Of a DNA stretch of 64,000 bases, positions 5,188-48,887 are shown piece by piece; position 1 is the stretch's first letter, and each line of letters begins with the position of its first letter. The stretch is from Pseudomonadota bacterium (lineage in GTDB: Bacteria > Pseudomonadota > Gammaproteobacteria > RBG-16-57-12): assembly GCA_040752855.1 (NCBI GenBank), contig JBFMHP010000001.1:45037-109036 (forward strand), written 5' to 3'. A model generated the notes under the pieces. That model did no database searches, was not told where the DNA came from, and saw only the letters and a program-made list of their open reading frames with translations. The position numbers and the translations under genes were made by a program.

Positions 5188-5189
5188 GC

Positions 5190-21621: not shown

Positions 21622-21955
21622 GAGAATGCTTTCCCTGTCGGACAAGGCCATCGCGGAGCTGCTCGGCGAGCGGATCAAGGCCCTGCGCCTGCGCCGCAAT
21701 ATCACCCAGGAAGCCCTGGCGCAGGCCACGGCCTTGTCGCTCAACACCATCAAGGCGCTGGAATCGGGCAAGGGCAAGCTCGCCACGGTGATTGCCGTCT
21801 TGCGTGAGCTGGATGCGCTGGACCAGTTGGACAACTTCATCCCGCCGCCCACCATCAGCCCGCTGCAGCTGGCCAAGAGGCAGGGCAAGCAGCGCGCGCG
21901 GGCCAGCGGTTCGCGCGCGCTGCCCGCCTCGGATGAGGATGAAGCGCCGTGGTAA
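21620..21955 (+). CDS. hipB: HipB-like XRE antitoxin
   Basis: HTH_XRE domain (IKALRLRRNITQEALAQATALSLNTIKALESGKG). Overlaps hipA by 7 nt. Confidence 0.8.
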   Translation: MRMLSLSDKAIAELLGERIKALRLRRNITQEALAQATALSLNTIKALESGKGKLATVIAVLRELDALDQLDNFIPPPTISPLQLAKRQGKQRARASGSRALPASDEDEAPW

Positions 21956-27692: not shown

Positions 27693-27759
27693 TGATATGT
27701 CCTTATTTAAAAATGATTCATGTGAAAAATTTGTACATTGTCTTCAAGTCCAACGACCG

Positions 27760-29634: not shown

Positions 29635-29754
29635 ATAAGATACAAGAGCGTTTAGCCGATGGTTTTCTGGTTTGGTGGCGTAATCTGATAAGCCAATTAT
29701 GCCCAGAACGGTTAAGAAGGCTGCGATTCCTCTTCCTTTGTGCCAAACGTCTTC

Positions 29755-30327: not shown

Positions 30328-30331
30328 GATT

Positions 30332-34309: not shown

Positions 34310-35010
34310 GAGAACAGCCTTCCGCAGCTTGATTAATATGGGCACTGTTTGTTAGATGAAGTCACGACAGCCATCGTCTTAACTCCTTAAGCATTCACCC
34401 AATCCGTAATCCTTTGCGACATCCGCAACATGTCGCGGCGTTGAGCGTTGCCTCAACGCCCCCTCACGCATCGAGCAGCCTGCCAATCCTTTGAAACAAA
34501 TAACGATATTCGCATTTCTCCATAATTGGCACGGAGAATGCGAAGGCTCAGATACGCCGTGAATGTTCGAGTTTTAACAGCGGGCACAACAAATCGCCCC
34601 GATTTGTTGTTCGACACGAAGAGTATCGCCATGAGACACGCGTTGACCATGACCACCCTATTACAGGAAAACCAAATCTTCTGTGGTACCGGAGGAGTAA
34701 GCACCGCCAATCGCGCATACCGCTTTGTGCCGGCATTCCAGGATACCGCCACTGGCCGAAACTACGTTTCACGATTCGCCGACGGACGCGCCGCACCCTG
34801 TCATCTGCTGGAGGGGTTGCCGGATGAGTTGGTGGTTGAGCGTTCCGAACGGGGCGCTGTTACTAGAATCAAGGATTCAGTCGTCTCGGGCTTTCTTCGT
34901 GGAGGGCGTTTCTATACACGCGCGGAGGCGGCCCAGATCGTGGCCATCTAGCCTGGATTTCTTTGCGTCCTGCAATCGGTTCTATCGCTCAAAGCAAAAT
35001 TCAGAATTTT
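34310..35010 (+). repeat. Copy 1 of the segmental duplication. Contains the full small gene X and its downstream region.
   Basis: 34310-34380 matches 39132-39200, and 34826-35010 matches 39205-39395 (about 85% identity). Copy 2 lacks about 440 bp in between. Confidence 0.75.
34631..34951 (+). CDS. Hypothetical small protein 'gene X' (106 aa; an alternative start at 34526 gives 141 aa)
   Basis: ORF with an RBS-like GAAGAG upstream. Its 3' 40 codons are duplicated at 39205-39324 with mostly conservative substitutions. Confidence 0.4.
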   Translation: MRHALTMTTLLQENQIFCGTGGVSTANRAYRFVPAFQDTATGRNYVSRFADGRAAPCHLLEGLPDELVVERSERGAVTRIKDSVVSGFLRGGRFYTRAEAAQIVAI

Positions 35011-35169
35011 TGTTCCTATTGAATACTATCGCCGCTTCATAACACCGCTTCGACCCAACCTTCTTTCGCACAATACGCTCGGTAAGATCAACGGATGCTG
35101 AACTTCAATGGCTCTTCTGCAAATACCTCGCTTGCATTGGAGTATACCAGCCGCAACCCGCTGTGGTCT

Positions 35170-35187
35170 GCCACAAATACTTGTGGC
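35170..35187. promoter_or_regulatory. Perfect palindrome GCCACAA-atac-TTGTGGC (candidate enhancer/UAS site)
   Basis: Conserved as GGCCACAA-atgc-TTGTGGCC at 40845-40864. About 105 bp upstream of the -24 element in both copies. Confidence 0.5.
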
Positions 35188-35275
35188 CTGACCGACCGCA
35201 GTCGTCACTCCAAGATCTGCTCACGAGACACATATCCTGCTGATCTGAAATCCATTTATTGCGCAGAACGCATGT

Positions 35276-35290
35276 TGGCGCAGCGCTTGC
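35276..35290 (+). promoter_or_regulatory. Sigma-54 (RpoN) -24/-12 promoter TGGCGC-N5-TTGC
   Basis: GG and GC are 12 nt apart. The consensus is TGGCAC-N5-TTGCW. About 80 nt upstream of the CCP-like start. Confidence 0.6.
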
Positions 35291-35383
35291 CATGCGGTAC
35301 ACGTGCACAAACTCTTCGACTGAAGACAGCGGCACGAAGTTAAGTCTCAACTCACTACTTCAATTCAACTAAGGAGATTGATC

Positions 35384-37591
35384 ATGCGCACAGTCACCAA
35401 CATGAGAAACAATCCGAAGTTTCGATCTGCAAGGTTAATTGAACGACAAGGACGTTCAGGGGTACCTCGGCATCGGTCTTTGGCCAAGACTGTCGGCGCG
35501 CTGGCCGTTGCCCTGTTGTGTGGTACTGCTACGGCCGCTGTCGATGATCGCGATTCTGGTCTCGGCGCCCCGCAGTTGCGTCAATTCGTCGATCAGCAAG
35601 TCGGCGGAATCCAGAAGTTGATGGTTCCAGCAAAGAATGAAGACCTGCCACAGCCACTGGGCACGGACGGAAAGCCGGACCCGCGTTTCAAGACCACCGA
35701 GGCGAAGCGTTATCTCGGCAAACAGCTTTTCCATGACCCGGACCGGATGGTCAGGATCGATCCCGCGTTCGGCGGCCTCCCGGAAACGGCACGGACCGCC
35801 TCTTGCGGTACTTGTCACCTGGGCGAGGCGGCCTCCAAAGCCGGCACCCTGTTCAACTTCGCCGTGGGTGGCGAGGGACGCGGCTACACCGACGCGAAGG
35901 GGAACTTCATTGCACGCAGGCGCCCCGACCTTGCCATTCTCCCGATGCTGCGACAGACGCCCTTGTTTCCCGGTGACGCGCTGGTGGATGAGCTACCCAC
36001 CCTCCAGGACGTCTACCGCGACAAGAACACGGGAGAAATCGTTGCCGGCAGCCCCGCCTTGCAGCGCAAGCTCGATCGTAGTGTTTTTGATCTGATCGCA
36101 ACCGGCCGGCTCGACGCCTTAGACAGCGTCGGGCGCAACGCGCCGAGCGTGCTCGGCGCCGCCTTCAACAACCGTCTGTTGCAGGGCGGCTTCGCAGGCG
36201 AGCCCGACTCCGCACCCGGGGGCTTGAACCCGTTCGGGTTTGTGGCGCAAGAAAGCGTGGCACTCTTGCTGCTCGACGCTCACCGGCTGCTCGAAAAACA
36301 GGCCAGCGAACTCGAGAAATTCGCTACATTCCGGCTATTGTTCCGCCAGGCGTTCCCCGAGGAAGCCGCCCAGGCGCCCGGCTGCGTGCCCGAGTCTCCG
36401 CCTGCTCAAGGTGCTTGTGACGCCCTGATCAACGACATGACCGCCTTGCGGGCGACGGCGACGTTCATGCGAACCGTGGTCACTCGCAACACGCCGTGGG
36501 ACAAGTTCTTGGCTGGAGACAACAGCGCGCTCACAGATAAACAGCGGCGCGGGGCCAAGCTCTTTTTCACCAAGGCGGAGGATGGCGGCGCGGGTTGCTT
36601 TACTTGCCACAGCGGACCGATGCTCAACAAGCAGCCTAACGACCCCGATGTGGCGGGTATGGGTCAGTTCGTGGAAGAAAACTTCTTCAACCTCGGGCTC
36701 GCCGATCATCCGTTGCAGGCGCTGAATCGCACGGTGAGAGGGCCAGGTTTCCGCGACGATGGAAGAAGGGAAATCACCGGCAAAGACAGCGATGCCTTCA
36801 AGTTCCGCGTGTTGACCTTGCGGCAGTTGAAGGATGGCCGTTTCTTCTTCCACAACGGCTCGTTCACGAGCGTCAGGGACGTGGTGCAGTACTTCAACGC
36901 CGGTGTCCCACAGGACGCAGTGGCCGCCGCCGCGGGTACGCTGACACCGCGCTTCACCAATCCCCGCGGAGCCGGCTCGCTCCCCGGGCTAGGCTTGAGC
37001 GAGCGTCAAGTGGATGATCTCACCGACTTCCTCGAGAACGCGCTCTACGATCCAGCGTTCGTGAAGTTCGATCCGAACTCGACCACGGACACGTTCGAGC
37101 TCAACGCGCGCGACACGACCTACTCGAAGTACCGTCCGGATCTGGTGGCGGCCGGCAACACTGACGGCCACCCGATGATTGACGGCCGATCTGTGAGCGG
37201 AAAGCCGCAGAATAACGACGACCCGCTGTCTCGACGCGACATGGGAATGGAGTTCCTGGACGTGACCGCCCAGGCGGTCATCGCACTGGCCGAGTCGAAC
37301 ACCCGACGCGGAGGTCTTCAGCAGGAAGATGTCTACAAGATCACCAACAACAGTACCTCGATCATAGACACCCACCTGCTCGTGATCGCCCGCGGTCTGT
37401 CGCCGAACGTCCGGCTGGAAAACCGCAGTGGAGTCAGCAAAGCCGGCGATCCGTATCTGCGTGTGTTCTTGCCCGATGGCGTCCTGATGCCTGGCCAGAG
37501 CATCGACGTGACGTTGGTCTTCCAGAAGCCGCTCAAGGCGCCGCCGGCGCAATACTCGCTCACGCTGCTGTCGGGACAGGGCAACCCGTGA
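35384..37591 (+). CDS. Di-haem cytochrome c peroxidase / MauG-family protein with long C-terminal beta-rich extension (737 aa)
   Basis: Two CxxCH haem motifs (SCGTCHLGE and GCFTCHSGP) in CCP-like context. Start set at 35384 (AAGGAG-N7-ATG). The ORF begins at 35378. Confidence 0.75.
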   Translation: MRTVTNMRNNPKFRSARLIERQGRSGVPRHRSLAKTVGALAVALLCGTATAAVDDRDSGLGAPQLRQFVDQQVGGIQKLMVPAKNEDLPQPLGTDGKPDPRFKTTEAKRYLGKQLFHDPDRMVRIDPAFGGLPETARTASCGTCHLGEAASKAGTLFNFAVGGEGRGYTDAKGNFIARRRPDLAILPMLRQTPLFPGDALVDELPTLQDVYRDKNTGEIVAGSPALQRKLDRSVFDLIATGRLDALDSVGRNAPSVLGAAFNNRLLQGGFAGEPDSAPGGLNPFGFVAQESVALLLLDAHRLLEKQASELEKFATFRLLFRQAFPEEAAQAPGCVPESPPAQGACDALINDMTALRATATFMRTVVTRNTPWDKFLAGDNSALTDKQRRGAKLFFTKAEDGGAGCFTCHSGPMLNKQPNDPDVAGMGQFVEENFFNLGLADHPLQALNRTVRGPGFRDDGRREITGKDSDAFKFRVLTLRQLKDGRFFFHNGSFTSVRDVVQYFNAGVPQDAVAAAAGTLTPRFTNPRGAGSLPGLGLSERQVDDLTDFLENALYDPAFVKFDPNSTTDTFELNARDTTYSKYRPDLVAAGNTDGHPMIDGRSVSGKPQNNDDPLSRRDMGMEFLDVTAQAVIALAESNTRRGGLQQEDVYKITNNSTSIIDTHLLVIARGLSPNVRLENRSGVSKAGDPYLRVFLPDGVLMPGQSIDVTLVFQKPLKAPPAQYSLTLLSGQGNP

Positions 37592-37611
37592 CAGGTGCTT
37601 GAGAGTAACGC

Positions 37612-37642
37612 CCGCCAACCCGGAGCCCGCCTTCGCGCGGGC
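37612..37642 (+). terminator. GC-rich hairpin (CCGGAGCCCGC-cttc-GCGGGCTCCGG) after the CCP-like gene
   Basis: 11-bp perfect stem 20 nt after the stop. Weak T-tract. Confidence 0.4.
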
Positions 37643-38166
37643 TCCGGGGATTAAAGAAAGCCTTTATCTACTGAAACGTTCATTCTGAATTTCTGCAAAC
37701 AGGAAGATGAAGCAACAGAACAATCTCGCTGGTGACGAAGATTTGATCAACTGCGCCAGCGGCGAAACTAATTAAAGGGCTTTGGCCCCTAAAGTCAGGA
37801 TGGCGCTCACTTGGGCGCGAACTTTGGATTGCCGAAAACAACGGGTTATCGATCGCACTAAGACGTTGTCGGCGATCTTGACGGTGGATATTTGTGCTTT
37901 CGCGGTGACCAATTGCCAGACAAATTGAGGATACCCACCAGTCTATTTATTGTGTCTCCTTAGTTTATTGCGTCGTTCTCAGGTTGTTTATTGCGATTTT
38001 TTTGGTAGTTGGCTTGTTAATGATTGCAGAACGCTCGAGCGGCATGGGCCGACTATACTAAGTTCTCTACACACAGCGCGCTATCGGACGATTTCTTCGC
38101 CGCACCGCGGCACATTACCAGGCAGGCAGTTGTCGGAGTCCCTCAATCATGAAGGAGACATATATC

Positions 38167-39006
38167 ATGCACACGATAAGCGGAAGGTTCGGCTTCAGGC
38201 CAATCACTATTGTGTCGTCTATTTTGTGTTTGTTGGTCGTCTTTCTGATCCCTTTGGGTGGCCCTGGCTTAGCGGCCGCTGCCCCGGAAAGTTGGACAGG
38301 ACACCGAGGTAAAATTCCTTTCAGCAAAGCCAAGATGATCATCGAGTTCAATTCCACCGCTAACGAGGGCGTGGGTGATGTGGGTGTCCAGGTGTTACTC
38401 GACGGAGAACCCTGGCAGTCGCTTAAGATCGAAGACCCTGACGAGCGTACGATTCTGAATATCAGGGCCAACAGTAGCTTGAGGAAGCAAGGGCTTACCG
38501 AACTGTTTTTCGAGAGTTCCGAGCCGTCATTGGATGAGACTCCGCTCGCGGATTTTCTGGCCCGTTTTCCAGAGGGAAATTACGAGTTCGAGGGAAGAAC
38601 GATCGACGGACAGCAGATTGAAGGAGTGGCGACATTCACACATATCATTCCAGCTGGGCCGGTTATTGTCTCGCCAGAGGAGGGTGATACAGTGGACGTT
38701 ACTGAGCCCCTGAGTATCCGTTGGGAGACGGTGACTAGTAAGGTCGAAGGTTCTGGCGAAGGCGACCTTGAAATTGTCGGCTACGAGGTGATCGTCGAAC
38801 GAACGGATAATGACGAACTCGGCGCTGCCCCGCGCACATTTGACATCAAGCTCGCGGCCACTTCGGCGCCAGTCCAAAGCGCAACGGTTCCGCCGGAATT
38901 TCTCGAACCAGGCCGCGAGTACAAGTTTGAGGTATTGGCGATCGAGAAAGGTGGCAATCAGACTATCTCGGAGGGTGGACCCTTCATGACCAACGCGACG
39001 CCCTAA
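38167..39006 (+). CDS. Secreted hypothetical protein with two beta-sandwich-like halves, downstream of the CCP-like gene
   Basis: GAAGGAG RBS 7 nt before ATG 38167. Has a signal peptide (ITIVSSILCLLVVFLIPLGGPGLAAAAP). The mature part has no Cys. Confidence 0.55.
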   Translation: MHTISGRFGFRPITIVSSILCLLVVFLIPLGGPGLAAAAPESWTGHRGKIPFSKAKMIIEFNSTANEGVGDVGVQVLLDGEPWQSLKIEDPDERTILNIRANSSLRKQGLTELFFESSEPSLDETPLADFLARFPEGNYEFEGRTIDGQQIEGVATFTHIIPAGPVIVSPEEGDTVDVTEPLSIRWETVTSKVEGSGEGDLEIVGYEVIVERTDNDELGAAPRTFDIKLAATSAPVQSATVPPEFLEPGREYKFEVLAIEKGGNQTISEGGPFMTNATP

Positions 39007-39131
39007 AATGCCGTAATACTTGCTCCGCCCGATCGTGCCCCTTTTAGCCTTGGCGGGCAACGACAACCGGGGGTACGAAGCGCATCAAGCGAGAAAAATT
39101 TTGTGAACGCAATACATTTGAATCCGCAGCT

Positions 39132-39395
39132 GAGAACAGCCTTCCGCAGCTTAATTAATTTGTCAGCTGAAATTACGACAGCCAATGTCTTAAATTCTTT
39201 CGGTGGTTGAGCGTTCCGAACGGGGTGCTGTTACCAGAATCAGGGATTCAGTCATCTCGGAATTTCTTCGTGGAGGGCGTTTTTATACACGCACGGAGGC
39301 GGCCCGGATCGTGGCCGTCTAGCCCGCATTTCTTTATGTCCTGCAATCAGCTTTACCGCTCAAAGCAAGATTCAGAATTTTGGTTCCAATTAAAC
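39132..39395 (+). repeat. Copy 2 of the segmental duplication (deletion derivative of 34310-35010)
   Basis: Collinear with copy 1 except for an internal about-440-bp deletion that removes the gene X promoter and 5' two-thirds. Confidence 0.75.
39205..39324 (+). pseudogene. 3' remnant of gene X (encodes VVERSERGAVTRIRDSVISEFLRGGRFYTRTEAARIVAV*)
   Basis: In-frame homolog of the last 40 codons of 34631-34951. The N-terminal part is absent. Confidence 0.6.
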
Positions 39396-39459
39396 AGCAA
39401 AAGTAATAATGGGCCATGCGACATCAGTGCAAACCACTACGCGGTACCCCGCTCTAAAA

Positions 39460-40689
39460 TTACCGCCACAGCGCGCTCACCGGCAGCGCAACATACTGGT
39501 CGCCAAACGGTATCACCTGATCACCGCCATAGAGCACCACGCCTCGGATAAATTTATCGCCCGCAGCCTGCGCCAGGGTTTCGAGGCCGGTGAGGTCTTT
39601 GCGGGTAAGCGATGCGGTGGCCTTGACCTCGACGCCGACTACGCGGCCGCGGGCGTCTTCGATGACCACATCGACTTCCCGGCCGGTGGTGGAACGGAAA
39701 TGGTAGAGCGATACGCGCTCTTGGGCCCAGCTCGCTTGTTTGCGCAGCTCGGCGACGACAAAGGATTCCAGCAGATGTCCCAGCAGTGTTGCGTCCTCGG
39801 CTAGGCGCTGAGAGGTCTGGCCTGTGAGATAGGCGGCCAGCCCGCTGTCGATGAGGTGGATCTTGGGTGATTTAACGAGCCGCTTGCCCAGGTTGGTAGA
39901 CCATGCCGGCAGCGGTTGGAACAGGAAGGTCATCTCTAGCAGGCTCAAGTAGCGCTTGAGAGTGGTGTGGGCGATGGCGGAGGCGCGCGACAGCTCGGAC
40001 ATGTTGAGCAACCCACCGGAACGCGCAGCGAGCAGGGCCAGGAGGCGTGGCATGTCGGTGAGTCCTTCGATGTGCGCCAGATCGCGGACGTCGCGTTGGA
40101 GGATGGCGGTGATGTAGGCGCCGAACCAAGCCTGGCGTCGGCCTGTATCTTCACGGGCGACGGCTTCCGGGTAGCCGCCGCCAATGATTTGGCTGAGGAT
40201 ATCAATACCGGTCTTTTCCGTATTCGAAAAATCGGGCAACCGCGGAGCAAAAACCGTATCGATGAACCGCTCAACGCGATCAGCAAGCTCTCCCTGGGAC
40301 AGGGGCCACAAGGGTATAGCCTCCATGCGGCCCGCCAGCGACTCGGACAATTGCGGCAGTAGCAGCACATTGGCCGAGCCAGTGAGCAGGAATCGCCCCG
40401 GGCGCCGGTCGGCATCCACTAGTATCTTGATGGCTGGAAACAGCCCCGGCGCCTTCTGCACTTCATCCACCACCACCATGCCCGGCAGGTTACGCAGGAA
40501 GCCATGCGGATCACCCACCGCGGCCGCCAGAGTCGTAGCGTCATCAAGTGTCACGTAGCGCCCCGCTCTCTGAGCGGCGATTTCTTGGGCCAGGGTGCTT
40601 TTGCCGGTCTGGCGGGCACCGTTGAGCAACACCACGGGGGTATCGCGGAGCACGGATTGGAGGTAAGGTTCGATATTTCGCCTGAACAT
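39460..40689 (-). CDS. AAA+ ATPase of the AAA_14/DUF4143 family (paralog of 15003-16454)
   Basis: Walker A LLNGARQTGKST. Same family architecture. Located as a 1.4-kb insertion inside duplication copy 2. Confidence 0.75.
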   Translation of the reverse strand: MFRRNIEPYLQSVLRDTPVVLLNGARQTGKSTLAQEIAAQRAGRYVTLDDATTLAAAVGDPHGFLRNLPGMVVVDEVQKAPGLFPAIKILVDADRRPGRFLLTGSANVLLLPQLSESLAGRMEAIPLWPLSQGELADRVERFIDTVFAPRLPDFSNTEKTGIDILSQIIGGGYPEAVAREDTGRRQAWFGAYITAILQRDVRDLAHIEGLTDMPRLLALLAARSGGLLNMSELSRASAIAHTTLKRYLSLLEMTFLFQPLPAWSTNLGKRLVKSPKIHLIDSGLAAYLTGQTSQRLAEDATLLGHLLESFVVAELRKQASWAQERVSLYHFRSTTGREVDVVIEDARGRVVGVEVKATASLTRKDLTGLETLAQAAGDKFIRGVVLYGGDQVIPFGDQYVALPVSALWR

Positions 40690-40820
40690 GGTGAAATATT
40701 AGCCATCACGTGGTGAATTTTCAACCACGCGACGTTGCCAAACCAGAAAAACCTGGTGCCCACTGAAAATATATCCACCCGCCTGCGGTAGTTCTAGGGA
40801 CAGAACTAATTCGAATTTAT

Positions 40821-41071
40821 CGCCAACCGCAACCCGTTGTGGCCGGCCACAAATGCTTGTGGCCTGACCGTCCGCAATCGCCATTCAAGGTCTCCTCGCA
40901 AGACTAATATCCTGTTGATATTAAATCAATTTATTACTCAGGACGCATGTTGGCACAGCGCTTGCCATTAGGTACACGTGCACAACGTTTTCGTCTGAAG
41001 ACAGCGGCACGAAATCAAGTCTCAAGTCACTACTGCAATTCAACTTAAGGAGATAAAACATGCGTACCAAA
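40821..41071 (+). promoter_or_regulatory. Leader copy 2 upstream of bufA (UAS palindrome 40845-40864 plus sigma-54 promoter)
   Basis: Homologous to 35147-35395. Confidence 0.75.
40951..40965 (+). promoter_or_regulatory. Sigma-54 -24/-12 promoter TGGCAC-agcgc-TTGC (exact consensus)
   Basis: TGGCAC-N5-TTGC with GG-to-GC spacing of 12 nt. About 95 nt upstream of the bufA ATG. Confidence 0.65.
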
Positions 41072-41329
41072 ACAGTCGTCACCTCAGCATTGGCCACCGT
41101 CGTAGTTCTGGGCATCGTGGCCACGGCCTCGGCGCAACCGGCCGCGAAACCGAAGTATGACTTCGAAAAGTGCTATGGCGTGGTAAAGGCTGGCAAGAAC
41201 GATTGCCAGACGGCCAACAGCTCCTGCGCCGGGACCTCGAAGATGGACGCCAACCCGACCGCCTGGATCTATGTGCCCAAGGGGACGTGCGATCGCATCG
41301 TCGGTGCCAGCACCCAACCCAAGGCATGA
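41060..41329 (+). CDS. bufA: DUF2282-type secreted Cys-containing precursor peptide (bufferin BufA-like)
   Basis: 89 aa. Has a Sec signal peptide (MRTKTVVTSALATVVVLGIVATASA). The mature region carries 4 Cys (EKCYG, NDCQT, SSCAG, GTCDR). Immediately precedes the DUF692 gene. Confidence 0.75.
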   Translation: MRTKTVVTSALATVVVLGIVATASAQPAAKPKYDFEKCYGVVKAGKNDCQTANSSCAGTSKMDANPTAWIYVPKGTCDRIVGASTQPKA

Positions 41330-42213
41330 GGATGCAGAGCATGATTCCTTCCGCGAACAATCATTTCGCAGTGGGACCGATTCCGGCGCAAGCCGGAATC
41401 GGATTGCGGGCCGAGCACTATCATGAGGTGGTGGAGACCAAGCCCGCGATCGCCTGGTTCGAGGCGCACAGCGAGAACTACTTCGGTGCCGGCGGCCGTC
41501 CACTGTATTTTCTGGAGCGCGTCCGCGCCGATTATCCGGTGAGTCTGCACGGTGTGGGACTCTCATTGGGCTCCGCCGATGCACTGAACCTGCGCCATCT
41601 CGAGAAGCTGCGGGACTTGATTCAGCGCATCGAGCCCGGGCTGGTTTCCGAGCATCTCTCGTGGGGCTCGGTGGGCGGGCGCTATCTCAACGATCTGCTG
41701 CCGCTGCCCTATACCGATGAGACCTTGCGCCATCTGATCGAGCGCGTGCAACAGGTGCAGGAGTTTCTCGGGCGGCAGATCCTCATCGAGAACATTTCCT
41801 GCTATCTGGAATATGAAGACACCACGCTCGCCGAGCCGCAATTTCTCGCGGAGCTGGCGCGGCGCAGCGGCTGCGCGCTGCTGCTTGATGTCAACAACGT
41901 GTATGTCAACGCCGTCAATCACCGCTTCGATCCCTTTGGCTATGTGGCGGCGATCCCCGCGGATCTGGTGCAGGAGATCCATCTCGCTGGCCACACCCGC
42001 CGGCAGCTTGAAGACGGCGCGATCCTCATCGACACGCACGATCAGCTCGTCACCCCTGCGGTGTGGGAACTCTATCGCGCCGCGGTCGCGCGCCTGGGCC
42101 GCATCCCGACCTTGATCGAATGGGACAGCGATCTACCCGCGCTGGAGGTATTGCTCGCCGAGGCGGCGCACGCCGAGCAGGTGATGGAGGTGGGCTATGC
42201 CGACGTTGCATGA
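41326..42213 (+). CDS. bufB: DUF692 / MNIO (multinuclear non-haem iron-dependent oxidative) enzyme, BufB/MbnB/TglH-like
   Basis: TIM-barrel xylose-isomerase-like pattern (GIGLRAEHY, FEAHSENYF, LHGVGLSLGS, HLSWGS, IENIS, IHLAGH). ATGA start/stop overlap with bufA. Confidence 0.85.
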   Translation: MRMQSMIPSANNHFAVGPIPAQAGIGLRAEHYHEVVETKPAIAWFEAHSENYFGAGGRPLYFLERVRADYPVSLHGVGLSLGSADALNLRHLEKLRDLIQRIEPGLVSEHLSWGSVGGRYLNDLLPLPYTDETLRHLIERVQQVQEFLGRQILIENISCYLEYEDTTLAEPQFLAELARRSGCALLLDVNNVYVNAVNHRFDPFGYVAAIPADLVQEIHLAGHTRRQLEDGAILIDTHDQLVTPAVWELYRAAVARLGRIPTLIEWDSDLPALEVLLAEAAHAEQVMEVGYADVA

Positions 42214-42982
42214 GTTGCAGCAGGGTTTCACTGCCGCGGTGTTCGATGCAAACCGCATCGATGTCTGTCGCCACATCCGTGACAACGGCTTGTCCGCCGC
42301 GCGGCGCCTGCAGATCTATCGTCATGATGTCTTCACCAAGTTCACCGAGGCCCTGGCCGCGGTCTATCCGGTGGTGCAGCGCCTGGTCGGCGCAGCGTTT
42401 TTCGAACAAACCGCCCGGGAGTACATCGTGCACCATCCCGCGCGGTGTGGCGACGTGCAGGCCTTCGGCGACCAATTCGCCGATTTTCTCGCCGCGCTGC
42501 CGCAGGTCTCGGGGTTGCCCTATCTGCCTGATGTGGCGCGCCTGGAATGGGCCTACCACGAGGTCTTTCATGCGGCCGACGCGCCGCCGCTCGACCCGAA
42601 CGCGCTCGCCGCGCTGCCGACTGAAGTGCACGGGGCGCTGCGTTTCATGCTGCATCCCGCCGCGCGGCTGCTGCGCTCGAACTATCCCGTATTGCGCATC
42701 TGGCAGGTGAATCAATCCGAGGCTGACCCCGCCGAGGTGGTGCGCCTCGATGAAGGAGGCGTGCGACTGCTGGTGATTCGGCGCGGGCTGGACATCGAGT
42801 TCGAGACGCTGAGCGAGGGCGCCTTCGCCCTGCTCGATGCCCTCGCGCACGGAGGCACCTTGGCGTTCGCGTGCGAGTGGGCGATCGCTGCGCAGCCGGA
42901 TCTCTCGCTCGTGCATTGCCTGAGCGGACACATTCAACGGGCGACCCTGGTGGGATTTCGCCTCGACTCAACTGCTAACTAG
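42197..42982 (+). CDS. bufC: DUF2063 partner protein (BufC/MbnC/TglI-like)
   Basis: 261 aa. Overlaps bufB by 17 nt. The N-terminus LQQGFTAAV...RLQIYRHDVF is typical of DUF2063. Confidence 0.8.
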   Translation: MPTLHELQQGFTAAVFDANRIDVCRHIRDNGLSAARRLQIYRHDVFTKFTEALAAVYPVVQRLVGAAFFEQTAREYIVHHPARCGDVQAFGDQFADFLAALPQVSGLPYLPDVARLEWAYHEVFHAADAPPLDPNALAALPTEVHGALRFMLHPAARLLRSNYPVLRIWQVNQSEADPAEVVRLDEGGVRLLVIRRGLDIEFETLSEGAFALLDALAHGGTLAFACEWAIAAQPDLSLVHCLSGHIQRATLVGFRLDSTAN

Positions 42983-42992
42983 GAGGTGCCTC

Positions 42993-43475
42993 ATGGCCAC
43001 CATCGCACACGTTCCAAGCAAACCCGTCCAATTCTCGCTGCTGCGCTCGGCCAAGGCATTCATCCGCGGTCTGGACTTCTTGAGCCCGGTGGGCGATCTC
43101 ATCGTGCGCCTGTATCTGGCGCAGGTGTTCTTTCAGGCGGGTCTCACCAAGATCCAGAGCTGGGACAGCACCGTCGCCCTGTTTACCTACGAATACCAGG
43201 TGCCCTTCCTGCCGCCGGAAATCGCGGCCTATATGGGCACCTTTACCGAGCTATTTTTCCCGGTGTTGCTCGCCGTGGGGCTGGCGGGACGCTTCAGCGC
43301 GGCGGTGTTGTTCATCTTCAACATCATCGCGGTCGTCTCCTACCCCGGTCTGATGGAGGCGGGCGTCGAGCAACACAAGGTGTGGGGCATCCTGCTGCTC
43401 ATGCCCTTGTTACACGGCCCCGGCCGGCTGTCGCTGGATTACTTCATCGCCAAGCGATTCTTTGGCGGTGTCTGA
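42993..43475 (+). CDS. bufD: DoxX-family membrane protein (BufD-like)
   Basis: 160 aa with 4 TM helices. Has the DoxX pattern (RLYLAQVFFQAGLTKI...GRLSLD). Confidence 0.8.
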   Translation: MATIAHVPSKPVQFSLLRSAKAFIRGLDFLSPVGDLIVRLYLAQVFFQAGLTKIQSWDSTVALFTYEYQVPFLPPEIAAYMGTFTELFFPVLLAVGLAGRFSAAVLFIFNIIAVVSYPGLMEAGVEQHKVWGILLLMPLLHGPGRLSLDYFIAKRFFGGV

Positions 43476-43508
43476 GTCTGTCAGCAAACACTTTTGAGGA
43501 GATCAACC

Positions 43509-44330
43509 ATGAGTATGTCGCGGCAAATGAATTCGGTATTGGAGGGACAACGCGCCCTGATCACCGGCGCCAACTCCGGCATCGGTGCCGGCATCGCAGT
43601 GGCGCTGGCGGCGGCCGGCGCGCGGGTGGCGGTGAACTTCGTGCGCAGCGCGGAGGACGCCGAACGGGTGGTGGAACACATCCGCGCCCAAGGCGGCGAG
43701 GCCATCGCCGTGAAGACCGATGTGAGTCAAGAGGATCAGGTCGAGGCCATGTTCGACCAGGTGGTGGAGGCCTTCGGCGGGTTGGACATCCTGATCAACA
43801 ACGCGGGGCTGCAAAAGGATGCGCCGTTGGTCGACATGAGCCTCTCCGACTGGGAGGTAGTGATGCGCGTGAATCTCACCGGGCAGTTCCTGTGCGCGCG
43901 GCGCGCGGCACGCGAGTTCATCCGTCAGGGCGTCGATGCGAAGCGTTCGCCGGCCGCGGGCAAGATCATCTGCATCTCCTCGGTGCATGACGTCATCCCC
44001 TGGGCGGGTCATGCCAACTACGCGGCCTCCAAGGGCGGGGTGATGATGCTGATGAAGACCCTGGCGCAGGAGCTCGCCGCGCACAAGATCCGCGTCAACA
44101 GCATCTCGCCCGGGGCGATCAAGACCCCCATCAACCACACCGCCTGGGCCACGCCCGAGAAGGAGGCCGAGCTGCTGGAGCTTATCCCCTACGGGCGGGT
44201 GGGCGAGACCGCCGACATCGGGCGCGCCGCGGTGTGGCTCGCCTCGGACGAATCCGACTACGTGAGCGGTGCGACCCTGTATGTCGACGGCGGGATGACG
44301 CTCTACCCCTCGTTCCGCTATGGAGGCTGA
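43509..44330 (+). CDS. SDR-family oxidoreductase (glucose-1-dehydrogenase / 3-oxoacyl-ACP-reductase-like)
   Basis: TGANSGIG, NNAG, S...Y..SK motifs. GAGGAG RBS before ATG 43509. Confidence 0.85.
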   Translation: MSMSRQMNSVLEGQRALITGANSGIGAGIAVALAAAGARVAVNFVRSAEDAERVVEHIRAQGGEAIAVKTDVSQEDQVEAMFDQVVEAFGGLDILINNAGLQKDAPLVDMSLSDWEVVMRVNLTGQFLCARRAAREFIRQGVDAKRSPAAGKIICISSVHDVIPWAGHANYAASKGGVMMLMKTLAQELAAHKIRVNSISPGAIKTPINHTAWATPEKEAELLELIPYGRVGETADIGRAAVWLASDESDYVSGATLYVDGGMTLYPSFRYGG

Positions 44331-45366
44331 GATGCGCGCGCGACTGCACCACGTCCTTGGTCTTGCCACCGGACTGGCACTGCTCCTCGCAGGCGCGGCG
44401 GCGGCCGAGGCGCCAACCGGCAGCGCCAGCGACTCACGGGGGGATCGCACCGGACTGCCCGAGGGCGAGCAACCGTGGTGGCCGAGCCGCTATGGGGCCG
44501 ACGACCAGCTCGGCACGCTGAACGAGATCACGCCCGCGGTGGTGCGCGCCGCCGCAGCCCTGGTCAAACAGGGCCGGGTGGTGGACCTCGGCCGCGTCCT
44601 GGACGCGGACACGCCCAAGTTTCCCGGCCGTTATTGGCACCAGAGCATCGAGGTCTCGCCCCACTTCACCAACCTGCGCCGCCCCGACCGTCATGGCAAG
44701 GGCTGGGGCAGGAACGAGATCAACTGGATCACCGAGATCCAAGCCGGGACCTTCCAGGTCGGCACCCAGCTCGATTCCATCGGGCATATCCAGATCGGCG
44801 ACCGTTTCTATAACGGCTGGACCGCCCGCGACGTGGTCGAGCCCTGGGGCCTGAACCGTTTCGGCATGGAGGGCGTGCCGCCGATCGTCACGCGCGGCGT
44901 GCTGATCGACATCGCCGCCTACAAGGGCGTGGCGCGACTGCCCAAGGGCTATGTCATCACCGTGGCGGACATGGAGGGTGCCCTCAAGCGCCAGGGCATC
45001 GACATTCGCGCCGGGGATGCGGTGCTGATCCACACCGGCTGGGGCGGTCTGTGGGGCAAGGACAACGCAGCGTTTCTCGATGGCGAGCCGGGGCCGGGCC
45101 TGGCGGTGGTCCAGTGGCTCTACGACCGGCACATCGCCCTCACCGGGGCCGATACCTGGAGCTACGGGCCGGTACCCGGCGAGGACCCCGAGCGGCCGTT
45201 TCTGGTGCCCCAGACCATGTACGTCAAGCTGGGCCTGTTCGGCCTGGAGAATCTCGCCACCGAAGAACTCGCCGCGCGCGGCATCCATGAGTTTCTGTTC
45301 ACGGTCACCCACGCCAAGACGCGCGGTTCCACCGCCGCGGTCATCGCCCCGGCGGCGCTTTATTGA
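44320..45366 (+). CDS. Cyclase-family protein (kynurenine-formamidase-like) with signal peptide
   Basis: PF04199-like metal-binding region (VGTQLDSIGHIQIGDRFYNGW). N-terminal LGLATGLALLLAGAAAA. Confidence 0.7.
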   Translation: MEAEMRARLHHVLGLATGLALLLAGAAAAEAPTGSASDSRGDRTGLPEGEQPWWPSRYGADDQLGTLNEITPAVVRAAAALVKQGRVVDLGRVLDADTPKFPGRYWHQSIEVSPHFTNLRRPDRHGKGWGRNEINWITEIQAGTFQVGTQLDSIGHIQIGDRFYNGWTARDVVEPWGLNRFGMEGVPPIVTRGVLIDIAAYKGVARLPKGYVITVADMEGALKRQGIDIRAGDAVLIHTGWGGLWGKDNAAFLDGEPGPGLAVVQWLYDRHIALTGADTWSYGPVPGEDPERPFLVPQTMYVKLGLFGLENLATEELAARGIHEFLFTVTHAKTRGSTAAVIAPAALY

Positions 45367-45378
45367 GGAGGACGCGAT

Positions 45379-46815
45379 ATGGACCGCCCATATGACTATC
45401 TCATCGTCGGTTCCGGCGCCGGGGGCTCGGCGGCGGCCTACCGGCTGGCCCTGAGCGGCAAGCGCGTGCTGCTGCTGGAGAAGGGCGAACGACTGCCGCG
45501 CGATGGCAGCACGCTCGATCCCGACACCGTGCTGCGCCAGGGCACGTTCAAGAATCACGAGGCCTGGGAGGACGGCGGCGGCAAGACGGTCTTCCCGCAG
45601 GAATACTACAACGTCGGCGGCAAGACCAAATGGTATGGCGCAGCCCTGCTGCGCTTCGCGCCGCACGAATTCGGCGCCGAGGCAGATTACGGCTGCCTGC
45701 CCTGGCCCATCGAATATCAGGATCTCGAACCCTATTACACCGAGGCCGAGCAGTTGTTGGGCACGCGCCACTTCCCGATCGAACCCCAGTTCGGGCGCAT
45801 TGTCGCGCGGCTCACCAATGGTCCCGGCTGGCAATCCCAGCCGATGCCGCTCGGCCTGATGCTGGATATCGCGGCGGATGCAGGCGAGGCCAGTCACTTC
45901 GACGGCTTCGCCTCGGTCAAGGGACTCAAGTTCGATGCCGAGCAGGCCTTTCTCGGGCGCATCACCGCGCCTAACTTCACCCTGGTCACCGGCAAGGCGG
46001 TCAGCGAATTGCTGGCGCACCCGGACGGGCGGCGCATCCAGGGCGTGGCCTGCGCCGACGGCAGCCGCTACCAGGCCGAGGTGGTGCTGCTCGCCGCCGG
46101 CGCGCTGCATTCACCGCGTCTGTTGCAGCACTACGTGGAGCGCGCGGGCCTCACCGCGGCCCTGCCCGGCGCGGGCCTGATCGGGCGGTACTACAAGTGC
46201 CACCTCAACACCGCCTTGCTCGCTTTCTCACGCCACCGCAAGACCGATCTGCTGTGCAAGACGGCGTTGCTGCGTCATGCGGACTTCCCGCACAGCAGCG
46301 TGCAACCGCTGGGCGGCGCGCTGGAGGGGGACATCCTGTCGGGCGAGCTCTCCCCCTGGGTGCCGCACCGCCTGTGCGCCGGCCTGGGCCATCATGCCTA
46401 CGGCTTTTTCCTCACCACCGAGGACGCCAGCGCCGCGGATAACCGTGTGGTGAGCGAAGGCAACGGCACCCTGCACCCGCGCCTCGACTATCAGCGCCGC
46501 CGCATCCCCAAAGCCGCGGCGGAACATCGCGCCTTCGTGGGCCGCTTCCGTCGCGCCCTGTTGCGCAGCGGCTTCGTGAGCTTCGCCCGCGCCATGCCGC
46601 TCGAGGCTACGGCGCATGCCTGCGGCACCCTGGTGACCGGCGCCGATCCCGCCCGCTCCGTGGTGGATCGTAACGGCCGGGTGCACGGCCTGGAGAATCT
46701 GTACGTGGTGGACGGCAGCGTGCTGGCGCGCTCCAGTCGCGTCAATCCCTCACTCACCATCTATGCCTGGGCGCTGCGCACCGCCGCAGGCCTCGAACCG
46801 GGAGGACACGCATGA
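45379..46815 (+). CDS. GMC-family FAD-dependent oxidoreductase
   Basis: N-terminal YDYLIVGSGAGGSAAAYRL FAD-binding motif. C-terminal GMC signature region (DGSVL...NPSLTIYA). Confidence 0.85.
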   Translation: MDRPYDYLIVGSGAGGSAAAYRLALSGKRVLLLEKGERLPRDGSTLDPDTVLRQGTFKNHEAWEDGGGKTVFPQEYYNVGGKTKWYGAALLRFAPHEFGAEADYGCLPWPIEYQDLEPYYTEAEQLLGTRHFPIEPQFGRIVARLTNGPGWQSQPMPLGLMLDIAADAGEASHFDGFASVKGLKFDAEQAFLGRITAPNFTLVTGKAVSELLAHPDGRRIQGVACADGSRYQAEVVLLAAGALHSPRLLQHYVERAGLTAALPGAGLIGRYYKCHLNTALLAFSRHRKTDLLCKTALLRHADFPHSSVQPLGGALEGDILSGELSPWVPHRLCAGLGHHAYGFFLTTEDASAADNRVVSEGNGTLHPRLDYQRRRIPKAAAEHRAFVGRFRRALLRSGFVSFARAMPLEATAHACGTLVTGADPARSVVDRNGRVHGLENLYVVDGSVLARSSRVNPSLTIYAWALRTAAGLEPGGHA

Positions 46816-48887
46816 ACGCCTCACTGCCCGACTTCATCCGTTTTGGCCGCGAGATCTGCGGCGACCTCGCCCAGGCTGAACGGCGCGAGTGGTGGCTCGC
46901 CAACGGGCTGGGGGCGTATGCCGCCGGCACCGTGGCGGGCACCCTCACGCGCCGCTACCACGGTCTGCTGATCGCGCCGCTCGCGCCCCCGCTCGGACGC
47001 TTCCTGGTGCTGGCCAAGGCCGATGCCACGCTGCACAATGGCGCGCGGCGCTTGCCTCTCTACACCAACCGCTGGGGCGGGGAGGTGGTCGATCCCGCCG
47101 GGCATGTGCACATCGAATCCTTCCGGCTCGAGGGCCGCATGCCGGTGTGGCGCTATGCCGTGGACGGACTCACGCTGGAGCAGCGCATCTGGCTGGAACC
47201 GGGATCGCACACCAGTTACGTCGCCTGGCGCGTGGAAGCCGCGCCAAACGCGCCGGAGCGCGCGCTGCGGCTCAGTGTGAAGCTCCTGGTCAACGCCCGC
47301 GATCACCACGGCAGCAGCCAGCCCTGGGGCTTCAATCCGGTCATCGAAAACGATACCAACACGCTGCGCGTGATCCACCCCAACTGGTTCACCCTGCATC
47401 TCCACGCTCGGGGCGGGGTCCTCGCGAGCGATCACAGCTGGTACGAGAACTTCGATTTACCCGTGGAACGCGAGCGCGGCCTACCCGAGCGCGACACTCA
47501 TCTCTGCGTCGGCACGGCCCAACTCGACCTCACGCCGGGCGAGTGGGTGGGGGTGGTGGCGAGTCTCCAGCCCCAGCCTTCCCTGTATCTCGACGAGGCG
47601 ATGCGCCGCTTCGCCGCGCATGACCGGGGACAGCTGCGCCGCATGCAGGTCACCGTCCCCGAGTTCCACGCGGCCCCGGACTGGATCCAACAGCTGGCGC
47701 TTGCCGCCGACAGCTTTTTATTCGCGCGTCCGCTGCCCGACCTCCCCGAGGGGGAATCGGTGATCGCCGGTTACCCCTGGTTCGGCGACTGGGGGCGCGA
47801 CACCATGATCGCCCTGCCGGGCCTGACCTTGGCCACCGGCCGCCACGACAGCGCGCGGCGCATCCTGGAGACCTTCGCCCGCTTCGTCGACCGGGGCATG
47901 CTGCCGAACGTCTTCCCCGGCGCGGGTGAGCACGCCGACTACAACACCGTCGACGCGGCCTTGTGGTATGTCGAGGCATGGCGCGCCTATGTCGAGGCGA
48001 GCGGGGATCTGGCCAGCCTGCGCCGGGTGTTTCCGGTACTCGCCGACATCATCCGCTGGCATGTCGCGGGCACCCGCTACGGCATCGGCATGGACACCGC
48101 CGACGGGCTGCTGCGCGCCGGCGAGCCCGGGGTGCAGCTCACCTGGATGGACGCCAAGGTCGGCGACTGGGTGGTCACGCCGCGCATCGGCAAGCCGGTG
48201 GAGATCAGCGCGCTGTGGTTCAACGCCTTGCAGATCATGGCGGGTTTCGCCCGCCAGCTCGGCGAGGCCACCGAGGACTATCAGGCGCTCGCCGAGCAGG
48301 TCCGCCAAGGCATGCAGCGCTTCATCACCCCCGGGCGCCACGGTCTGTTCGACGTGCTCGACGGCCCTGCTGGCAATGACGCCAGCGTGCGCCCGAACCA
48401 GATCTTCGCGGTGAGTCTGCCGCACAGCGCGCTCGAACCTGCGATGCAGCGGGCGGTGGTCACGCAATGCGCCGAACAGCTGCTCACCTCCTACGGCCTG
48501 CGGTCTCTCGCCCCGGATCACCCGGACTTCCGCCCCCATTACCAGGGAGGGGTGGGAGAGCGCGATGGGGGCTATCACCAAGGCCCGGTCTGGGGCTGGC
48601 TGCTGGGGCATTTCGCCTTGGCGGAGTATCGGGTCTCGGGCGATGCACATGCGGCGCAACGGCGGCTTGAACCGATCCGCAATCATCTGCTCGACGCCGG
48701 CCTGGGCACCGTGAGCGAGATCTTCGACGGCGCCCCGCCGCATACCCCGCGCGGTGCCCCGGCCCAGGCCTGGTCGGTGGCAGCGGTGTTGGAGGCCTGG
48801 TGGCGCCTGGAGCGCGCCCGGCGCGCCGCGGCGGACCGGCCGCAGCTTGCGCGGGTGCGGCGGGATGCAGTGGTCGCAGAAACTTAG
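46812..48887 (+). CDS. Glycogen-debranching-enzyme-like amylo-alpha-1,6-glucosidase (GDE_N + GDE_C)
   Basis: N-terminal EWWLANGLGAYAAGTVAGTLTRRYHGLL matches the GDE N-domain. The C-terminal half is (alpha/alpha)6-like. Confidence 0.8.
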   Translation: MNASLPDFIRFGREICGDLAQAERREWWLANGLGAYAAGTVAGTLTRRYHGLLIAPLAPPLGRFLVLAKADATLHNGARRLPLYTNRWGGEVVDPAGHVHIESFRLEGRMPVWRYAVDGLTLEQRIWLEPGSHTSYVAWRVEAAPNAPERALRLSVKLLVNARDHHGSSQPWGFNPVIENDTNTLRVIHPNWFTLHLHARGGVLASDHSWYENFDLPVERERGLPERDTHLCVGTAQLDLTPGEWVGVVASLQPQPSLYLDEAMRRFAAHDRGQLRRMQVTVPEFHAAPDWIQQLALAADSFLFARPLPDLPEGESVIAGYPWFGDWGRDTMIALPGLTLATGRHDSARRILETFARFVDRGMLPNVFPGAGEHADYNTVDAALWYVEAWRAYVEASGDLASLRRVFPVLADIIRWHVAGTRYGIGMDTADGLLRAGEPGVQLTWMDAKVGDWVVTPRIGKPVEISALWFNALQIMAGFARQLGEATEDYQALAEQVRQGMQRFITPGRHGLFDVLDGPAGNDASVRPNQIFAVSLPHSALEPAMQRAVVTQCAEQLLTSYGLRSLAPDHPDFRPHYQGGVGERDGGYHQGPVWGWLLGHFALAEYRVSGDAHAAQRRLEPIRNHLLDAGLGTVSEIFDGAPPHTPRGAPAQAWSVAAVLEAWWRLERARRAAADRPQLARVRRDAVVAET

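Follow-up and report, generated by a model that had tools for sequence, protein, structure and literature searches.

INTRODUCTION

The closest described relatives of the locus reported here are the bufferin clusters, among them buf1ABCD of Caulobacter vibrioides. Bufferins are exported proteins of small size that bind copper, and enzymes turn their cysteines into thiooxazoles. In C. vibrioides, BufB and BufC are necessary and sufficient for modification of the precursor BufA1, and the DoxX protein is dispensable (PMC11626156). The chemistry described for the family removes 4.03 Da from each of the second and third cysteines (CysII and CysIII) and joins CysI to CysIV in a disulfide, which gives a shift of −10 Da in total (PMC11626156). 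BufA1 folds into two strands and a short helix, with CysI on the first strand bonded to CysIV on the short helix (PMC11626156). Published Buf1 clusters are associated with genes for an extracytoplasmic function (ECF) sigma factor and NrsF (PMC11626156, PMC12452194), and the gig (gold-induced genes) operons are now counted as bufferin clusters as well (PMC11626156). Herein, we analyzed a 64,000-nucleotide stretch of DNA from a Pseudomonadota bacterium (GCA_040752855.1, contig JBFMHP010000001.1, positions 45,037 to 109,036), referred to below as the window. The locus at 41060–43475 of this window is very probably a Buf1-type (DUF2282) bufferin biosynthetic cluster with a C. vibrioides-like pathway, which would be transcribed from a sigma-54 promoter with read-through to 55085.

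RESULTS

A Buf1-type bufferin cluster of four coupled genes

The locus comprises four co-directional genes, and the coordinates given for them in the original prediction, which had been made from the letters of the window and its open reading frames (ORFs), were exact to the base. The genes, and the two parts of the first one, are as follows.

41060–41329, plus strand: bufA, 89-aa DUF2282 (Buf1-type) bufferin precursor
41060–41134, plus strand: predicted signal peptide of BufA, codons 1–25, by inspection
41135–41326, plus strand: 64-aa core of BufA, with Cys at core positions 13, 24, 31, and 52
41326–42213, plus strand: bufB, 295-aa MNIO (DUF692) bufferin maturase
42197–42982, plus strand: bufC, 261-aa DUF2063/RRE-type MNIO partner protein (PME1)
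42993–43475, plus strand: bufD, 160-aa DoxX membrane protein

The ATG of bufB lies over the TGA of bufA in an ATGA junction, bufC starts inside bufB with an overlap of 17 nt, and a gap of 10 nt separates bufC from bufD. Shine-Dalgarno sequences precede bufA (AAGGAG), bufC (GGAGG), and bufD (AGGAGG). These overlaps and ribosome-binding sites (RBSs) fit a coupled operon. All four ORFs were of full length against profiles and homologues, and each product scored above the Pfam cut-off of its family: BufA for DUF2282 (PF10048; 85.7 bits, cut-off 22.4), BufB for MbnB_TglH_ChrH (358.3 bits, cut-off 25), BufC for DUF2063 (88.7 bits over residues 6–98, cut-off 27.2), and BufD for DoxX (66.4 bits, cut-off 23.6). 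The original prediction had proposed a DUF692 enzyme with an ATGA overlap, a DUF2063 partner with a 17-nt overlap, and a DoxX protein as the last of four genes in a bufABCD architecture, and had named profile searches with DUF2282, DUF692, and DUF2063 as a check, with the lack of significant matches to DUF692/DUF2063 as a possible refutation. The searches returned strong matches to all three, and every element of the architecture was upheld.

The length of BufA lies inside the 80–120 aa range of the family. Its homologues numbered 3856, and PF10048 was present in all among the matches listed; one homologue is named 'BufA1 family periplasmic bufferin-type metallophore' by NCBI. Cys38, Cys49, Cys56, and Cys77 were 100% conserved in 121 aligned sequences (BufA and its 120 best matches) and likewise in a further alignment, and the motifs around the cysteines read EKCYG, KAGKNDCQT, SCAGTS, and W.Y.P.G.C. 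There was no EGKCG repeat in BufA. The N-terminus begins with MRTK, which holds two basic residues; next come about 18 hydrophobic residues (Kyte-Doolittle values peaking at 2.85) and then ASA|QP; in the homologues, an Ala-rich c-region is followed by an invariant Pro27. An exported 89-aa precursor with four cysteines had been claimed beforehand, with the lack of a signal peptide or of Cys conservation regarded as telling against it. A signal-like N-terminus is present, the four cysteines are invariant in the 121 sequences, and cleavage after ASA, by rule, would leave the 64-aa mature part.

The AlphaFold2 model of BufA has strands at residues 35–39 and 69–73 and a short helix at 77–79, the same strand/strand/short-helix layout as C. 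vibrioides BufA1. Residues 65–67 lie just ahead of the second strand; in the published model, this strand is turned towards the thiooxazole loop. Positions 65 and 67 are Asn and Thr here and also in the closest BufA relatives (P0001 and L001).

BufB could be assigned more narrowly than to its superfamily. It scored 394.4 bits against the NCBIfam equivalog MNIO_BufB ('MNIO family bufferin maturase'), beyond the cut-off of 310, and stayed under the cut-offs of the NCBIfam models for HvfB (245.7 vs. 360), MbnB (63.2 vs. 325), ApyH, and ChrH. Its best PDB match was 3BWW, an HvfB homologue (E = 5e-44), followed by TglH (E = 1.4e-17) and MbnB. The iron ligands of MbnB are H54, H90, E133, D163, N166, H192, D208, H210, and E239 (PMC9060507). 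The first eight of these aligned to BufB H75, H110, E155, D188, N191, H219, D236, and H238, and E265 in the LIEWD motif is, by motif position, probably the counterpart of E239, so that all nine MbnB-type ligands have counterparts in BufB (eight by alignment and one by motif).

The AlphaFold2 model of BufC, built with 62 homologues, has two domains, in line with the N-terminal DUF2063 and C-terminal RRE-like domains of such partners, and is well scored (predicted local distance difference test [pLDDT] 89.2, predicted template modelling score 0.85). A Foldseek search of the PDB with this model gave only two proteins at E < 1e-3, namely TglI (8HCI_A and 8HI7_A; the best match) and NGO1945 (3DEE). 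TglI works as the partner subunit of TglH, itself an MNIO enzyme. NGO1945 is a DUF2063 partner cited as the PME1 prototype (PMC13097082).

For comparison between genomes, we used 80 genome loci, those whose BufB is closest to that of the window; a separate set of metagenome loci was found with a cyclase query, as described below. The order bufA-B-C-D was the most frequent among the 80 loci, and bufD followed bufC in most of them. The closest genome locus, L001, on a contig of a metagenome-assembled genome labelled 'uncultured Chromatiales', encodes a BufB with 91% identity and is colinear with window positions 40909–48213 at 88.6% nucleotide identity; the next relatives are Competibacteraceae at ~65%. 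A second buf cluster was sought in the window, and none was found. The gene identities, the conserved catalytic and substrate residues, and the gene order of a Buf1 cluster are all present at this locus.

Predicted maturation and function of BufA

By analogy with the characterized members of the family, the following course can be predicted for chemistry, export, copper binding, and physiological role. BufA would be made as an 89-aa precursor. In the cytoplasm, BufB as the iron enzyme and BufC, with its DUF2063 and peptide-binding domains, would use O2 to convert Cys49 and Cys56 (core positions 24 and 31) into 5-thiooxazoles. The precursor would then be exported by the Sec route and cut by signal peptidase after Ala25, and Cys38 and Cys77 would form a disulfide. 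The resulting 64-aa periplasmic product would bind Cu(I)/Cu(II) through its thiooxazoles and buffer excess copper, while BufD would be an accessory membrane protein that is dispensable for modification. For the core, monoisotopic masses of 6765.26 Da (unmodified) and 6755.18 Da (modified) are predicted.

A predicted sigma-54 promoter upstream of bufA

The region upstream of bufA contains candidate elements of an enhancer-dependent promoter, and a candidate activator is encoded elsewhere in the window.

40837–40864, plus strand: candidate upstream activating sequence (UAS), TTGTGGCC/GGCCACAA-atgc-TTGTGGCC, an inverted repeat with a third half-site
40924–40936, plus strand: AT-rich stretch AATCAATTTATTA between the UAS and the promoter, partly conserved in the copy at 35 kb and in L001
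40951–40966, plus strand: predicted sigma-54 (RpoN) −24/−12 promoter, TGGCACagcgcTTGCc (also written TGGCACAGCGCTTGCC), 109 nt ahead of the bufA start codon
23430–25319, plus strand: candidate activator, a bacterial enhancer-binding protein (bEBP) with the Pfam architecture GAF-PAS-AAA+(GAFTGA)-HTH_8

The TGGCAC-N5-TTGC element at 40951–40965 is the only exact match in the window on either strand, and it is conserved in the alignment of the window and L001 upstream regions. The exact motif was found 78–109 nt upstream of bufA in six genome loci (L001, L021, L052, L060, L062, and L067) and in eleven metagenomic loci (L090, L098, L102, L108, L109, L112, L116, L122, L123, L128, and L136), and at −259 from bufA in L002. 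The background of the motif, with one mismatch allowed, was 0.039 per kb per strand. As the motif is not significant alone, the case for it rests on its position and its conservation across loci.

The candidate UAS lies 87–114 nt upstream of the −24 element. Similar repeats of the form YGYGG..CCRCR-N4-7-YGYGG were present at a similar distance in twelve loci (L001, L052, L060, L062, L067, L090, L098, L102, L109, L112, L116, and L128), and this architecture at −80 to −115 was kept even in loci whose flanks otherwise do not align; the repeat is a candidate binding site of a sigma-54 activator. The AT-rich stretch AATCAATTTATTA fits the consensus of integration host factor, WATCAANNNNTTR, a weak piece of evidence.

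Of the proteins of the window, only that encoded at 23430–25319 carries GAFTGA. Over its full length, it shares 54% identity with a bEBP whose gene lies 3.6 kb upstream of bufA in L052, and relatives with at least 50% identity are encoded beside the buf/SDR cluster (SDR, short-chain dehydrogenase/reductase) in 15 of 34 metagenomic loci. In L062, the bEBP gene ends 300 nt before bufA. Taken together, sigma-54 control of the buf operon is probable. Transcription would start at the promoter at 40951–40966, and the GAF-PAS enhancer-binding protein would activate it via the repeat at 40837–40864.

Other modes of control were also considered. No Sigma70_r2/r4 or NrsF match was obtained among the ORFs scanned, which covered the small ORFs of the window in part; the neighbours of buf are genes for an AAA_14/DUF4143 ATPase and an fn3-like protein upstream and an SDR gene downstream. 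A sigma-70 promoter scan gave no plus-strand site upstream of bufA. Rfam scans, of the whole window and permissively of 40700–41150, returned nothing. A riboswitch or structured leader is not supported: the 87-nt leader folds no better than shuffled sequences (z = −0.77) and has no Rfam match.

A duplicated regulatory region and an upstream island

The buf regulatory region has a paralogous copy further upstream, followed by a gene of a different family.

35147–35390, plus strand: paralogous copy of the buf regulatory region, ~240 nt, 85%–86% identity to 40823–41065
35384–37591, plus strand: MauG-like di-haem cytochrome c peroxidase-family gene (CCP_MauG, 43.6 bits), behind the second regulatory copy

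The duplicated parts are the UAS (35161–35188 in the second copy), the AT-rich segment, the −24/−12 element, the leader/5′ untranslated region, the RBS, and ATGCG; past the ATG, the homology stops within a few bases. The second-copy sigma-54 element is TGGCGCagcgcTTGCc at 35276, and the promoter reads TGGCGCAGCGCTTGCC. That two promoters share an enhancer architecture speaks for a small regulon controlled by a single activator, and it suggests the MauG-like gene as a second member. A MauG-like gene with 66% identity occurs inside the cluster of L118. Neither the MauG-like gene nor the fn3 protein or the 106-aa ORF was counted into the conserved neighbourhood; a MauG-like gene was present only in L118.

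A near-consensus sigma-54 element, TGGCACGGAGAATGC, was also seen at 34527–34541, with one mismatch and the correct GG/GC spacing, ~105 nt before an ATG at 34632; it may be a third promoter of sigma-54 type, or chance. That ATG opens the small ORF of ~106 aa, whose 3′ end, with the sequence that follows it, forms a 193-nt direct repeat (34831–35023 vs. 39202–39394, 89% identity); the second copy is a gene fragment. This repeat shows that the duplicated unit was ~560 nt long. In the buf copy, the unit is interrupted by the AAA_14/DUF4143 ATPase gene (39460–40689, minus strand). This gene is internally deleted in L001, where only its ends are left (L001 2927–3022 and 3024–3109), and it may be mobile or dispensable. 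A paralogue with 26% identity is located at 15003–16454.

From ~37500 to 41000, the G+C content is 0.50–0.55, compared with 0.60–0.72 in the flanks, marking a variable island directly upstream of the buf promoter. The island carries a secreted fn3-like protein (38149–39006), and L001 has different genes of low similarity there.

A seven-gene module downstream of bufD

The original prediction ended the locus at 43475. Instead, the four buf genes seem to occupy the promoter-proximal end of a unit of 11 genes that extends to 55085; its further members are the following.

43509–44330, plus strand: glucose-1-dehydrogenase-like SDR, 33-nt gap after bufD, RBS GAGGAG (adh_short_C2, 226.9 bits)
44332–45366, plus strand: Cyclase-family (PF04199) protein, 1-nt gap, signal-peptide-like N-terminus (Pfam Cyclase, 93.1 bits)
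45379–46815, plus strand: GMC-family FAD oxidoreductase, 12-nt gap (Pfam GMC_oxred_N and GMC_oxred_C)
46812–48887, plus strand: archaeal-type glycogen debranching enzyme, ATGA overlap (GDE_C, 387 bits; GDE_N, 215 bits)
48942–51665, plus strand: GH63/MGH1-like glycoside hydrolase, 907 aa, 54-nt gap (MGH1-like_GH, 85 bits)
51662–53884, plus strand: DoxX::NDH-2 fusion, 740 aa, ATGA overlap (DoxX, Pyr_redox_2, NDH2_C)
53877–55085, plus strand: MFS transporter, 8-nt overlap, last gene of the tight run (MFS_1, 85 bits)

The SDR scored 242.6 bits against the NCBIfam glucose 1-dehydrogenase subfamily NF005559 (cut-off 215), and the debranching enzyme scored 354 bits against TIGR01561, slightly under the cut-off of 364. 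An alternative start of the cyclase at 44320 would give an 11-nt overlap with the SDR. Between bufA and the MFS gene, the widest gap is 54 nt; none of the gaps contains a terminator-like site, and no plus-strand sigma-70-like site was found. Transcription would read past bufD into the seven further genes, the last of which ends at 55085.

The arrangement recurs elsewhere. The SDR gene comes directly after bufD in many loci, the GMC gene follows the cyclase in an order conserved across loci, and the GH63-like gene is conserved downstream in many of them. Among the 80 genome loci found with BufB, nine have the same module genes after bufD; among them are Betaproteobacteria with the buf order B-C-A-D, in which the bufD-SDR junction is still kept. 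As an independent test, metagenomes were scanned with the cyclase alone, and 34 loci with at least 3.5 kb upstream were obtained. In 29 of them bufA, bufB, or bufC lay within 8 kb of the cyclase, and in 21 bufD was followed by the SDR or the cyclase within 400 nt, counts that are upper estimates of independent cases because some metagenomic loci are near-duplicates.

In L082, L083, L117, and L118 (no buf) and in L081 and L084/85 (buf upstream of the activator gene), a sigma-54 promoter is located 670–800 nt before the SDR gene, and a small unrelated ORF lies between the two. Since the promoter stands before the SDR gene where buf is absent or displaced, promoter and activator belong primarily to the SDR-to-MFS module. 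In the lineage of the window, buf holds the promoter-proximal position. The ORF at L084 6562–6876, after the sigma-54 promoter, encodes a small Cys-free secreted protein with no Pfam match, and that at L118 6334–7002 encodes 222 aa with a weak CMD-family match (22.8 bits, cut-off 23).

Going by the family names, our guess is that the module serves alpha-glucan/glucoside breakdown and glucose oxidation feeding the quinone pool. In the fusion protein, whose gene shares a putative operon with bufD, DoxX is joined to NDH-2, a flavoprotein resembling type II NADH dehydrogenase; the DoxX part and BufD have 37% identity. The fusion may hint that a quinone-linked flavoenzyme is the working partner of DoxX proteins in bufferin clusters.

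Other genes of the window

Several further genes are unconnected to buf: an Lhr-type large helicase (9487–13917), a glutathionylspermidine synthase-like protein (18254–19393), a HipA-like toxin kinase (21949–23277), and a CHASE2-PAS-GGDEF-EAL signalling protein (58634–62350). At the thresholds used, no Pfam match was obtained for four consecutive minus-strand ORFs at 26718–31747 (324, 624, 190, and 471 aa) or for four ORFs at 3186–7693 (226, 255, 234, and 425 aa).

DISCUSSION

The bufferin family was described in the original prediction as mostly hypothetical and the locus as an uncharacterized one. This no longer holds for the family, which has been experimentally characterized since 2024 (PMC11626156, PMC12452194, PMC13097082) and for which NCBI provides a BufB equivalog model. 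With thousands of members already known, the core finding is ordinary and changes little alone. As far as the bufferin literature searched reaches, the predicted sigma-54 wiring, the seven-gene extension, and the duplicated promoter appear not to have been reported. In the landscape paper (PMC12452194), the terms sigma-54, RpoN, enhancer, GMC, and dehydrogenase do not occur, and the literature searched gave no link of bufferins to sigma-54/RpoN, enhancer-binding proteins, GMC oxidoreductase, or glycogen debranching, although such absence is not proof of novelty. In that survey, unrelated genes counted only at distances of up to 10 bp, and other conserved genes were extremely rare (PMC12452194); with this limit, the SDR module would have been missed.

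Several observations count against the assignment of the locus to a copper-buffering, sigma-54-controlled Buf1 cluster. Modification, cleavage, copper binding, and induction at bufABCD rest on homology. The cleavage site after Ala25 was read by the −3/−1 rule, and the AlphaFold2 model of BufA is only moderately confident (pLDDT 66), with residues 1–26 low. At the positions taken here by N65 and T67 (41252–41260), Q and D are found in 98% of the 120 best homologues, and CysII and CysIII are spaced by 7 residues rather than the 8 in C. vibrioides. The sequence of BufC gave no match in the PDB, so that its link to TglI and NGO1945 runs via the structure model; BufC also scored only 60.6 bits (residues 26–220) against the NCBIfam HvfC model with its cut-off of 142, and BufD 66.5 bits against the HvfX family with its cut-off of 80. 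Among the ORFs scanned, there was neither a copper sensor nor an ECF sigma/NrsF pair nor a classical copper-resistance gene, which leaves copper responsiveness unsupported here but does not refute it. As for the promoter, matches to the sigma-54 motif with at most one mismatch numbered 7 in the window vs. 7.1 expected, and the single exact match is unremarkable alone. The Competibacteraceae-like loci L081 and L084 have the sigma-54 promoter downstream of buf, ahead of the SDR module, and sigma-54 control of buf is thus confined to some lineages. The candidate activator gene is 16 kb from the buf promoter, between the HipA-like kinase gene and an opposite-strand SDR gene, and rpoN was not identified in the 64-kb window; its presence in the genome is implied indirectly by the bEBP gene.

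Three other readings of the same genes were weighed. The DUF2282 protein might be an unmodified, small Cys-rich periplasmic or membrane protein, with DUF692 and DUF2063 acting on another substrate. This would suit the Pfam title ('predicted integral membrane protein'), the JGI annotation ('uncharacterized membrane protein'), and the occurrence of some DUF2282 genes without an MNIO gene (PMC12452194), but the sole hydrophobic stretch is the N-terminal signal sequence, bufA is translationally coupled to bufB, the substrate cysteines and catalytic residues are all conserved, and in the model system BufB and BufC suffice for and are needed by BufA1 (PMC11626156). We find it scarcely credible. It is also improbable, though less so, that bufABCD is a self-contained unit as in C. 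vibrioides, with the genes past 43475 separately expressed and the sigma-54-like motif not a working promoter. The 33-nt gap between bufD and the SDR gene lacks any terminator- or promoter-like site, no fewer than 17 other loci have the exact motif 78–109 nt before bufA, compared with a background of 0.039 per kb, and bufA has no plus-strand sigma-70-like site upstream. One exact motif per 64 kb is nevertheless not improbable by chance, and the Competibacteraceae-like loci do have a bEBP gene between buf and the SDR module, with the sigma-54 promoter after buf. The surveys, too, take the four genes as the core, with others in extremely low proportions, but their 10-bp limit would miss the SDR (PMC12452194).

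The remaining reading keeps the genes and changes their role: the bufferin would be part of a sigma-54-controlled redox/carbohydrate-oxidation module rather than mainly a copper-stress buffer, might handle a metal or reactive species of that module, and would respond to a signal sensed by the GAF-PAS protein. The module stands beside buf in 29 of the 34 loci, across Beta- and Gammaproteobacteria, and the linkage survives the rearrangement of buf from A-B-C-D to B-C-A-D. All 11 genes of the window's unit lie behind one promoter with tight spacing, the module has its own DoxX domain, related to BufD and fused to NDH-2, and no copper regulator was found nearby among the ORFs scanned. Yet bufferins do not need the module, which accompanies only about 10 of the 80 loci with the most similar BufB, and every characterized family member binds copper (PMC11626156, PMC13097082). 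The seven extra proteins include no obvious cuproenzyme or metal transporter, their adjacency to buf could reflect block inheritance or transfer instead of shared function, and what the module does is no more than a guess based on family names. We consider this role unlikely and retain the assignment to a Buf1-type cluster with a C. vibrioides-like pathway.

As a tentative proposal, a Buf1 sub-lineage in uncultured Gamma- and Betaproteobacteria may have been recruited as the promoter-proximal part of a conserved ~14-kb sigma-54/GAF-PAS supra-operon that runs from buf through the SDR, a periplasmic cyclase-family hydrolase, the GMC oxidoreductase, two alpha-glucan hydrolases, and DoxX::NDH-2 to MFS. 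If so, the bufferin and DoxX would work with quinone-linked carbohydrate oxidation, under a signal other than ECF-sensed copper stress, and the DoxX::NDH-2 fusion would be a Rosetta-stone clue to the role of BufD, a point not settled in the bufferin papers. In part of the bufferin clusters, control appears to lie with sigma-54 and a GAF-PAS activator instead of ECF SigF/NrsF, and this context gives leads on non-copper inducing signals of bufferins in environmental proteobacteria and on the function of DoxX.

Comparison with known systems

The MNIO enzyme and its partner relate the locus to several characterized pathways. In the TglHI pair of the 3-thiaglutamate pathway (8HCI/8HI7), TglI is the closest structure to the BufC model and TglH is matched by BufB; the TglHI chemistry is excision of the beta-carbon of a C-terminal Cys, and substrate and genomic context differ from buf. 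In the methanobactin system MbnABC, an MNIO enzyme with the same set of iron ligands acts on a ribosomal peptide, whose Cys becomes a copper ligand. That system has the MbnC partner and an oxazolone/thioamide product, whereas the partner here is a DUF2063 protein, and MbnA is short, consists of a leader and a core, and lacks a Sec signal, in contrast to the DUF2282 protein BufA with its signal peptide. The roles differ as well, copper acquisition for methanobactin and buffering for bufferins. An MbnABC methanobactin cluster is ruled out by the MbnB model score (63.2 vs. 325), the DUF2063 partner, and the DUF2282 precursor.

The EGKCG captophorins oxazolin (HvfABC), fontiphorin (FonABC), and gonophorin (PMC13097082, PMC11252979) share the same pair of an MNIO enzyme and a DUF2063/RRE (PME1) partner, often with DoxX, and their product is a copper-binding peptide with 5-thiooxazoles, as predicted for BufA. 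Their precursor consists of EGKCG repeats, whereas BufA is a folded DUF2282 domain with four Cys. An HvfABC oxazolin cluster was rejected, since the EGKCG repeat is lacking and the HvfB model score is 245.7 vs. 360.

The gig operons of Cupriavidus metallidurans and Legionella pneumophila (PMC5413113) have the same DUF2282-DUF692-DUF2063-DoxX layout. They are known from gold or copper induction and differ in promoter type, whereas the locus here is known from sequence. The buf1ABCD cluster of C. vibrioides (CCNA_03363–03366; Leprevost et al. 2024, PMC11626156) contains the same four families in the same order, and bufferin 1 likewise derives from a DUF2282 precursor that carries four conserved Cys behind a Sec-type signal peptide. 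The mature part is 68 aa in C. vibrioides and a predicted 64 aa here, and both have Ala after CysIII. Unlike C. vibrioides buf1ABCD, the cluster here runs from bufD into seven more genes without an apparent break, and whereas buf1 belongs to the ECF SigF/NrsF copper regulon, the locus described here has a predicted sigma-54 promoter and a candidate activator of the GAF-PAS family.

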